A DNA stretch of 64,000 nucleotides from Escherichia coli (GTDB lineage: Bacteria > Pseudomonadota > Gammaproteobacteria > Enterobacterales > Enterobacteriaceae), in assembly GCF_013315695.1 (NCBI RefSeq), contig NZ_CP054353.1; one strand, given 5' to 3'. A program made the translations under genes and the position numbers. Within the stretch, counting starts at the first letter, position 1. Each line of letters begins with the position of its first letter. Of the stretch, positions 46,818-49,114 are shown one piece after another. The notes below the pieces were generated by a model. That model was not told the origin of the DNA. It saw only the letters and a list, made by a program, of their open reading frames with translations, and ran no database searches.

Positions 46818-49114
46818 GTGTCAGTTCCGGACCGTTGTATTTTTCCAGCCATGCCAGCGCCGTATTACCCGCACAGCCATTCCCCAGCCGCGAGCTGGGG
46901 AGATCTTTGGTCAGCACGTTCACTGCGCCGTTTTTACAAATGCCGTCAGCGGTTAAATCCAGATCTGGCCATGCGCCTTCGTGAATACAAATCACGCCAG
47001 GTTTAATTCCCTCGCTAATGACCGCGCCGGCAAGAATTTGCCCGCGTGAGTTCCACAGCCGAACAGTATCGCCATCTTGTATGCCGCGCGTCTGGGCATC
47101 GTCAGGATGAATGGTGACAGGCTCACGGTTTGCCACCGCGTACAATTCGCGCAGAGAACTGTAATTCAGCTGGCTGTGCAGACGATGTGCCGGATGAGCA
47201 GAAAGTACCTGCAACTGTTCCGGTTCGGCATTGCCCTGCCATTCGTCCGGCTCCAGCCACATTGGATGCCCCGGGCAATCCGGATAAGCGTAATCAGCAA
47301 TACGCTGCGAGAAGATTTCAATCTTGCCGCTGGCGGTTTTTAATGGATGCGCCTGCGGATCGCGGCGAAAATCGGCGAAGCGAATAAACCGCTCGCTGTC
47401 CGGGTTTTCCGGCATCTCAATTAACTGGTTGGCTTCCCATAACTCAGCAAATGGCGGCAATTCAACCTGCTGGCTTGCCCCGCGCTGCCGGGCAACGTTA
47501 TAAAACGTTTCCAGCCATTGCAGCTCACTTTTTCCTTCCGTAAACCGCGCATAGCCGCCCTTCTCCCAACGTTCACTCAACTCGGCAAAGACATCAAAAT
47601 CATTACGCGCTTCATAACGTGGAGGCACCACTTGCTTCATCGGCACCAGATGCTGATTACTGTAATCGCCGGTCATGGTGAGATCATTACGCTCAAACGA
47701 AGTGGTCGCAGGCAGAACGATATCCGCGTGTTTCGCCGCAGCCGTCCAGAAGCATTCAGAGATCACCACCAGCTCCGGTTTTTGCCAGGCACGGATCAGG
47801 CGATTGGTATCCTGATGATGAGTAAAGTTGGCACCGCCCGCCCACCAGATAAAACGAATATCCGGGAAATGTCGGTCCATACCGTTATGTTGATATGCGC
47901 CACCAGGGTTTTCCAGTGCTTCAACAATGCGGGCGACAGGGATTTTATCTACCGCATCGGTGCCACCCGGCAAGCTGCCCTGCATGGAAGAGAGCACCGC
48001 AGCGCGTGGGGTTACCACCATTGGCAAAATGGTAAGAAAGACCAAAACCGCCGCCGGGTGTGCCGATTTGCCCCAACATTGCCGCCAGCGTGACGATCAT
48101 CCAGTGCTTTTGCTCGCCAAACTGTTGACGTTGCATTCCCCAGCCAGCCATCAGCATGGTGGTATTTTGATGGAAAAGAGCCGCCAGTTCGCGGATTTTC
48201 GCTGCGCCAACACCACAAATCTCTGCCGCCCATTCGGCGTTTTTCGCTATACCGTCACTCTCGCCCAGCAAATAAGAGGCGAAGACGGCATAACCTGTGG
48301 TGCAACGCGCCAGAAACGCTTCGTCGTGCCAACCATTTTCCACCAGCGTATGGGCGATCCCCAGCATCAACGCAACATCGGTGCCCATGTGCGGAGCCAC
48401 CCATTCCATTTTATCGCCAAAGAAATCGACGGTTTCCGATCGCATTGGATCAATGCAGATCAGCTTTTTCCCGCTGTCACGCAGTGCGGAAAAGTAAGAA
48501 AGCCCCTGCTCATCGGATGCATTCCACGCAATTTTCAGCGTATTGAGTGGGTTAGCACTCCACAGCACCACGACATCGCTATGTTCCAGCACCAGCGGCC
48601 AACTGGTTTGCTGTTGATAAACTTCGCTGCCCCCCACGACATACGGCATGATCGCCTGTGCCGCGCCGGTCGAATAATCCCCCAGATGCCCAGTATAACC
48701 GCCTGCCAGCGCCATATAGCGTTGTAATAATGTCGAGGCCTTATGCAGCACGCCGTTTGAACGCCAGCCGTAGGAACCCGCAAAAATCGATGCCGGACCA
48801 TAAGCCTCACGAATGCGTTTATGTTGATGGTGAATAAGCTCCAGCACCTCATCCCAACTCACGCGAACAAATTCATCCTGCCCACGAATGCCTTGCGGAT
48901 TTTCCGGTGACGCAAGAAAGCCTTTGCGCACCATTGGAAATCGCACCCGCGTATTGCTGTGAACCTGGTCGCGAACCGCGCTCTGCAAGGAGTTTTCCAT
49001 TCCTGTGGCTAACGCGCCACGCGAGCTAAACACGGTTTCGCCGTCGGTTTCAACCAGCATAGGCCCCCAGTGGGCGGCAGTCAGAACGGAATATCGTGAG
49101 GATGAGTTGGCCAA
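46786..49114 (-). pseudogene. bisC: Biotin sulfoxide reductase (molybdopterin oxidoreductase) split into two overlapping frames; frameshift near 47945-48045
   Basis: Minus ORFs 47945..49114 (N-terminal 389 aa) and 46786..48045 (C-terminal 419 aa) together span the gene; span length 2329 nt is not a multiple of 3. Confidence 0.65.

Follow-up and report, generated by a model that had tools for sequence, protein, structure and literature searches.

Why is bisC, the gene of biotin sulfoxide reductase, divided between two reading frames in this stretch of Escherichia coli DNA (hereafter the window, 64,000 nucleotides in all), and does the division reflect a mutation that the bacteria carry, an error in the assembly or a functional arrangement? 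The first-pass annotation had reported a frameshift between positions 47940 and 48050, for which it offered two explanations, an indel that truly inactivates the gene and an error of sequencing.

The bisC locus and its 5-bp lesion

On the minus strand, a 389-aa open reading frame (49114..47945) and a 419-aa one (48045..46786) make up the two halves of bisC, and both appear in the ORF list exactly as the first-pass annotation described them. Its arithmetic also stands, since the gene span (46786..49114) counts 2329 nt, which leaves a remainder of 1 on division by 3, and the second ORF lies in the +1 frame with respect to the first ((49114-48045) mod 3 = 1). The NCBIfam profile TIGR00509 (bisC_fam) matched the 389-aa product at profile positions 1-363 (E 1e-156, 523.2 bits) and the 419-aa product at positions 362-768 (E 1e-165, 552.9 bits), so that both ORFs jointly cover positions 1-768 of 772. 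The curated cut-off of this profile for full-length members is 1017.55 bits, a threshold that neither ORF reaches alone. Each falling below the cut-off while together they span positions 1-768, the locus is of bisC descent and neither product is a member of the family.

The surroundings are those of a normal E. coli bisC locus, flanked by yiaD, ghrB and yiaF in one direction and by yiaC, tag and yhjY in the other. Indeed, the orthologous order yiaD-bisC-yiaC-tag was found in the window and in strains MSB1_4I, AF3, MS 21-1, K-12, IAI39 and AF14. The same six annotated records all have the TTG start codon preceded by a GGAG Shine-Dalgarno sequence that bisC has in the window (TTG at 49112-49114), and in all of them, as here, the 3' end of bisC overlaps the convergent 3' end of yiaC by 32 nt (46786-46817 in the window). 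The ORF pair is thus no chance arrangement, as it represents consecutive halves of one profile at a conserved locus.

Alignment with an intact bisC, the check proposed for pinpointing the indel, revealed a single gap of 5 nt with respect to the closest intact gene, that of strain MS 21-1, along with 2 further nucleotide differences. The gap falls at (CGCGC)2, where the intact sisters read CCCCA-CGCGC-CGCGC-TGCGG and the window reads CCCCA-CGCGC-TGCGG; the junction in the window is ACGCGCTGCGG, and the two-unit form of the intact lineage is CGCGCCGCGC. In the latter, the perfect tandem repeat CGCGC-CGCGC spans codons 370-373. The unit that remains occupies window positions 48006..48002 (gene positions 1109-1113), and its 5 nt serve both as the end of codon 371 in frame 1 and as the start of codon 372 in frame 2. 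The frameshift proposed to split bisC is therefore real and traces to a 5-bp deletion relative to intact orthologues; the interval 47940-48050 is indeed where the frames overlap, with the lesion proper inside it. The features of the locus are the following:

46786..49114, minus strand: whole bisC, read here as a pseudogene, 2329 nt against 2334 nt and 777 aa when intact
48002..49114, minus strand: native codons 1-371, with the TTG start at 49112..49114 and Ser148; matches the intact sisters save for A90V
48002..48006, minus strand: lone CGCGC at the deletion junction, placed by alignment with MS 21-1 and exact comparison
47945..48001, minus strand: out-of-frame tail of 18 residues and the TAA at 47945..47947, from translation
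46786..48006, minus strand: native codons 372-777 and the stop codon in the +1 frame, TIGR00509 positions 362-768
48846, minus strand: A90V single-nucleotide change (gene position 269, C>T), lineage-specific, nonsynonymous and older than the deletion

The first-frame product thus comprises native residues 1-371 followed by 18 wrong ones before the TAA, and the 419-aa ORF, as delimited mechanically, runs upstream to a TTG at 48045, which adds 13 non-native residues. Re-insertion of CGCGC restores a stop-free protein of 777 aa, which differs from the BisC of MS 21-1 and of AF14 at 2 residues each, from that of IAI39 at 4 and from that of K-12 at 15. Apart from the deletion, bisC carries no other disabling change with respect to its intact ancestor. 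The repeat is perfect in the lineage of the window, whereas K-12 has the imperfect CGCGGCGTTC at this site (encoding TRRSAV) and IAI39 has CGCGGCGCGC.

A perfect direct repeat that is short by precisely one unit is what replication slippage classically leaves behind. We infer, rather than demonstrate, that the ancestor of the clone most likely lost one CGCGC unit by slippage between the direct repeats, the simplest mechanism for a 5-bp loss. The loss shifts the frame after Arg371, so that translation from the normal TTG adds 18 aberrant residues to 371 native ones and ends at the TAA; the remaining 406 codons are stranded in the +1 frame and have no ribosome-binding site to themselves.

Carriers and history of the deleted allele

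The same lesion would be read differently if the true bisC were intact and the 5-bp gap an artefact of sequencing or assembly. One assembly by itself is insufficient to exclude this, and some platforms can miscall short GC-rich repeats. A megablast search with the 2329-nt bisC against 5,426 complete E. coli genomes found the gene in 5,422. Two of these show 100% identity along all 2329 nt, and the matches ranked after them span 2334 nt. A 61-nt probe of the junction was likewise exact in only 2 of the 5401 matching complete E. coli genomes, MSB1_4I and AF3, while the other ~5,400 align at ~61/66 positions, that is, with the extra 5 nt present. MSB1_4I (NZ_LR898874.1) comes from a rectal swab in Australia and AF3 (NZ_OZ547117.1) from a blood culture in the UK; the respective loci, JMX41_RS00920 and AC9VVF_RS17010, are both annotated 'biotin sulfoxide reductase, frameshifted'. 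Two complete genomes, assembled independently in different laboratories and countries, therefore carry the identical allele. Over ~60 kb, 1 isolated SNP and 12 clustered substitutions in the ldr repeats separate the window from MSB1_4I; against AF3, 5 isolated SNPs come in addition to that cluster. The right end of the window diverges from the two genomes past position 60487 and position 60219, respectively. As it differs from both, the window represents a third distinct genome with the deletion.

Exact look-up of the 389-aa product across NCBI, ENA and Logan retrieved 509 contigs (908 index blocks), with assemblies of short-read isolates and of metagenomes among them, and an exact-sequence look-up of the 399-aa C-terminal ORF retrieved 585 contigs. 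The former set includes KTE isolates in which the halves of bisC have neighbouring accession numbers (ELF14853.1/ELF14852.1, EOU87736.1/EOU87735.1 and EOV01639.1/EOV01638.1), and two ENA metagenome contigs show the same split bisC between the same gene neighbours. Moreover, some descendants of the truncated protein have acquired a further single substitution (P0011-P0013). The usual sequencing error is of the homopolymer type, which the clean loss of a 5-nt repeat unit is not. The lesion is thus heritable, being carried by three distinct genomes and by 509 contigs that include metagenomic ones, and it disrupts the frame by 5 bp relative to ~5,400 genomes at the same locus. Of the two explanations offered by the first-pass annotation, the genuine indel holds and the sequencing error does not: with the same allele in independent assemblies, we regard an artefact as excluded for practical purposes, its probability being negligible. 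The frameshift being genuine, bisC should be annotated as a pseudogene in this genome and not 'repaired'.

The alleles retrieved also order the events that led to the present sequence. A90V is derived in the lineage of the window, since A90 is found in K-12, IAI39, MS 21-1 and AF14 alike. The V90 allele also exists in an intact 777-aa form equal to the repaired window protein (P0046, UPI00033AC787), which occurs on 104 contigs; 7 contigs have the intact A90 ancestor, and one has the same 5-bp loss on an A90 background. Given the 104 contigs with intact V90, A90V came first, then the deletion and then the expansion of the clone; for the same reason, we rejected A90V as a substitution fixed after inactivation under relaxed selection. 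Over 25 kb compared, only three changes set the deletion clade apart from its intact sisters: the deletion, A90V and an indel of 1 bp between genes at 40964. So few differences indicate that the bisC pseudogene is young, and the gene shows no further decay. That two of these three clade-defining changes fall in bisC was considered as a possible signal and set aside (~0.18 by calculation, not significant given ascertainment). The indel at 40964, between dppA and tRNA-Pro, is present in the three deletion genomes and absent from the intact sisters, and provides a second marker of the clade. The deletion itself is a clean, stable marker of one E. coli clone, which has been sampled in several countries from rectal, blood and metagenome material. 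Collectively, these data lead us to conclude with high confidence that bisC is here a recent, clonal, single-copy pseudogene that arose by loss of a 5-bp repeat unit, is inherited vertically and most likely has no activity.

Expected loss of function and arrangements that would preserve it

In the intact sister protein, Pfam delimits PF18364 (Molybdopterin_N, residues 12-52), PF00384 (Molybdopterin, 56-517) and PF01568 (Molydop_binding, 636-741). The frameshift cuts PF00384 at residue 371, which corresponds to profile position 234 of 353; accordingly, the first frame holds PF18364 and the first 234 of the 353 positions of PF00384, and the second frame holds positions 257-353 of PF00384 and all of PF01568. 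No single uninterrupted polypeptide with Molybdopterin_N, Molybdopterin and Molydop_binding is encoded at the locus in the window. The N-terminal fragment has, in the motif GDYSTGAAQ, the serine that aligns with the molybdenum ligand (S148, Ser147 in 1EU1) but is devoid of much of the cofactor-binding scaffold. Enzymes of the DMSO reductase type are built of four domains, non-contiguous in sequence save for domain IV, with domains II-IV binding the cofactor (PMC8166771). As all four domains are needed around the Mo-bis(guanine dinucleotide), BisC activity is most likely absent, and this domain architecture makes inactivation of bisC very likely.

The part of PMC7402097 that cites Ezraty et al. 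2005 describes BisC as a cytoplasmic enzyme that reduces biotin sulfoxide and free methionine-S-sulfoxide, not protein-bound methionine sulfoxide. The cell would therefore most likely lack BisC reduction of either compound in its cytoplasm, and the predicted phenotype is minor, namely no BisC-dependent salvage of biotin sulfoxide or free methionine-S-sulfoxide. The original description of TorZ in E. coli presented it as a second enzyme for the reduction of biotin sulfoxide (PMC5122715).

A split bisC could in principle remain functional if the two fragments assembled with each other, or if a +1 ribosomal frameshift within the 100-nt overlap joined the frames. In the alignments, the break falls where a loop with gaps and little conservation begins (~residue 368 of 1EU1), a variable region in which an interruption of the polypeptide would in principle be best tolerated; in-frame ATG codons occur at 48021 and 47985, at most 80 nt upstream of the stop of the first ORF; and the overlap contains a CUU-U sequence. 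We scanned all ATG, GTG and TTG codons of the second frame in 48045..47973 for anti-Shine-Dalgarno pairing, which returned duplex energies of +2.6 to -5.0 kcal/mol, none of them comparable to the -6.9 kcal/mol of the native bisC start; hence, no candidate start has a usable Shine-Dalgarno sequence. The only CUU-U of the overlap lies upstream of the deletion, and a shift there would swap a conserved segment of 11 residues for junk, so that the overlap offers no combination of slippery motif and stimulator that would yield the native protein; nor was a Shine-Dalgarno-like stimulator found in it. The two-frame layout is not conserved either: the junction is shared by 2 of 5401 genomes, every bisC inspected outside these two deletion carriers is an intact single ORF of 2334 nt, and a single ORF in ~5,400 complete genomes is the opposite of what programmed recoding would show. 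Programmed frameshifting and reinitiation were rejected on these two grounds, the missing comparable start and the unconserved layout. Assembly of the fragments would further have to accommodate domains that are non-contiguous in sequence and wrapped around the cofactor (PMC8166771). Although the gene is otherwise undamaged with respect to its intact ancestor, missing further decay is equally expected of a young pseudogene. A functional split is, on balance, very improbable.

The lesion being a change in the number of tandem-repeat units, bisC might alternatively be switched on and off by gain and loss of CGCGC, and the one contig with the same loss on the different, A90, background would suit such phase variation. 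However, the tract has gone from two units to one, which leaves nothing to slip back on, and the three genomes of the clone are all one-unit and 'off', so that no multi-unit tract with on and off lengths was found inside the clone. The perfect two-unit tract, queried as a 66-mer, is present in 1271 complete genomes, whereas the one-unit junction is exact in only 2. The repeat being common and its loss confined to the clone and one contig, the site is neither a hotspot nor a contingency tract; a repeat hotspot was rejected on this evidence, and a phase-variation switch has a vanishingly small probability. A young clonal pseudogene remains our reading of the locus.

Decay elsewhere in the window and comparison with known alleles

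Other parts of the window bear marks of insertion sequences. Three 768-bp copies of IS1 (2591-3358, 27050-27817 and 60488-61255) are mutually 100% identical, and the stretch containing IS1 and ISEc45 yields at least 40 matching pieces per record in the sister genomes, which suggests that insertion sequences multiplied recently in this lineage. The copy at 60488-61255 adjoins a truncated yiaB and is directly followed by fragments of xylG, a gene interrupted at 62074-63207 by the transposase gene of an ISEc45 (IS110 family). With respect to MSB1_4I, the window lacks 4,721 bp comprising xylF, xylA, xylB and the first 34 nt of yiaB, an IS1-adjacent deletion (region 60488-64000) that is private to the window genome and predicts a xylose-negative phenotype. 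The copy at 27050-27817 lies between a 66-nt bcsR remnant and a 5'-truncated bcsE (region 26984-29146); the divergent region from which the cellulose (bcs) operons are controlled is thereby destroyed, an arrangement common to MSB1_4I and AF3. The bcsA gene (23605-26223) is intact in the window, whereas that of AF3 is interrupted by a stop codon (window position 24012, G vs A). An IS150 transposase gene (53424-54793) adjoins hokA and is also present in MS 21-1 and AF14, whose bisC is intact. The bisC frameshift fits with IS-driven decay across the window, as seen in the IS1 copies, the bcs control region, xylG and xylFAB.

Two further differences from the sister genomes concern single nucleotides. 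The gene of the Ldr type I toxin is present in five tandem copies at 31097-33137, and the 12 substitutions in the ldr repeats, found against both MSB1_4I and AF3, all fall in 32695-32930, which looks like gene conversion between repeats or a difference in repeat assembly. At 52328 the window has a private SNP, A instead of the G of MSB1_4I, AF3, MS 21-1 and AF14.

The bisC case is one of ordinary, recent clonal gene decay that public annotation already marks. Loss of BisC might conversely have been favoured, the null allele aiding the spread of a human-associated clone; the contig counts per allele (509 with the deletion, 104 with its intact V90 parent and 7 with the A90 ancestor) are what such a spread could look like, and nothing specific supports it. 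We consider it improbable, and two fragments forming a working split molybdoenzyme still less likely. Were loss favoured, BisC, on which the full virulence of Salmonella depends, would be dispensable or even costly in E. coli bloodstream infection. As AF3 was isolated from a blood culture, the clone evidently does not need BisC to reach the bloodstream, in mild contrast to the Salmonella bisC mutant, which is attenuated in macrophages and mice according to the passage of PMC5122715 that cites Denkel et al. 2013.

A literature search combining bisC and pseudogene returned no report of the 5-bp allele and one paper with a synonymous bisC SNP only; literature on strains MSB1_4I, KTE143, KTE69 and MS 21-1 yielded nothing useful. 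The exact allele is nevertheless already known from the databases, as a RefSeq pseudogene and, in older GenBank genomes, as two CDS. JMX41_RS00920 of MSB1_4I and AC9VVF_RS17010 of AF3 equal the window gene in all 2329 nt at 100%, in the deletion and in the gene neighbourhood. Other E. coli bisC truncations include frameshifts after residues ~343, 353, 362, 375 and 403 and a stop at codon 380 (alleles P0002, P0008-P0010, P0014, P0049, P0058 and P0060-P0062); their clustering near residues 340-400 is an artefact of retrieval, as they were fetched through clusters of similar length. These are different lesions on other backgrounds, carried by 1-23 contigs each against 509 for the allele of the window. 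Such independent, sporadic truncations indicate that loss of bisC is ordinary and recurrent.

Among intact relatives, P0046 encodes a protein equal to that of the repaired window gene but has kept both CGCGC units. MS 21-1 (WP_000013962.1) and AF14 (WP_128430171.1) are 2 nucleotides and the 5-bp gap away from the window, and both have the two units and a 777-aa product. K-12 BisC (WP_000013950.1 / P20099), a cytoplasmic Mo-bis(guanine dinucleotide) enzyme that reduces biotin sulfoxide and free methionine-S-sulfoxide, is the orthologue at the same yiaD-bisC-yiaC locus, with 15 of 777 residues differing from the repaired window protein; its gene is intact, with the imperfect CGCGGCGTTC in place of CGCGCCGCGC, and the window is 5 nt short at this site. 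The closest solved structures are those of Haemophilus influenzae MtsZ (7L5I, E 3e-276) and Rhodobacter sphaeroides DMSO reductase (1EU1, E 8e-247), which share the four-domain fold with BisC and have a molybdenum-ligand serine that aligns with S148; their use in this analysis was confined to placing the break. Unlike bisC of the window, however, both are intact, and they act as respiratory or repair enzymes in the periplasm.
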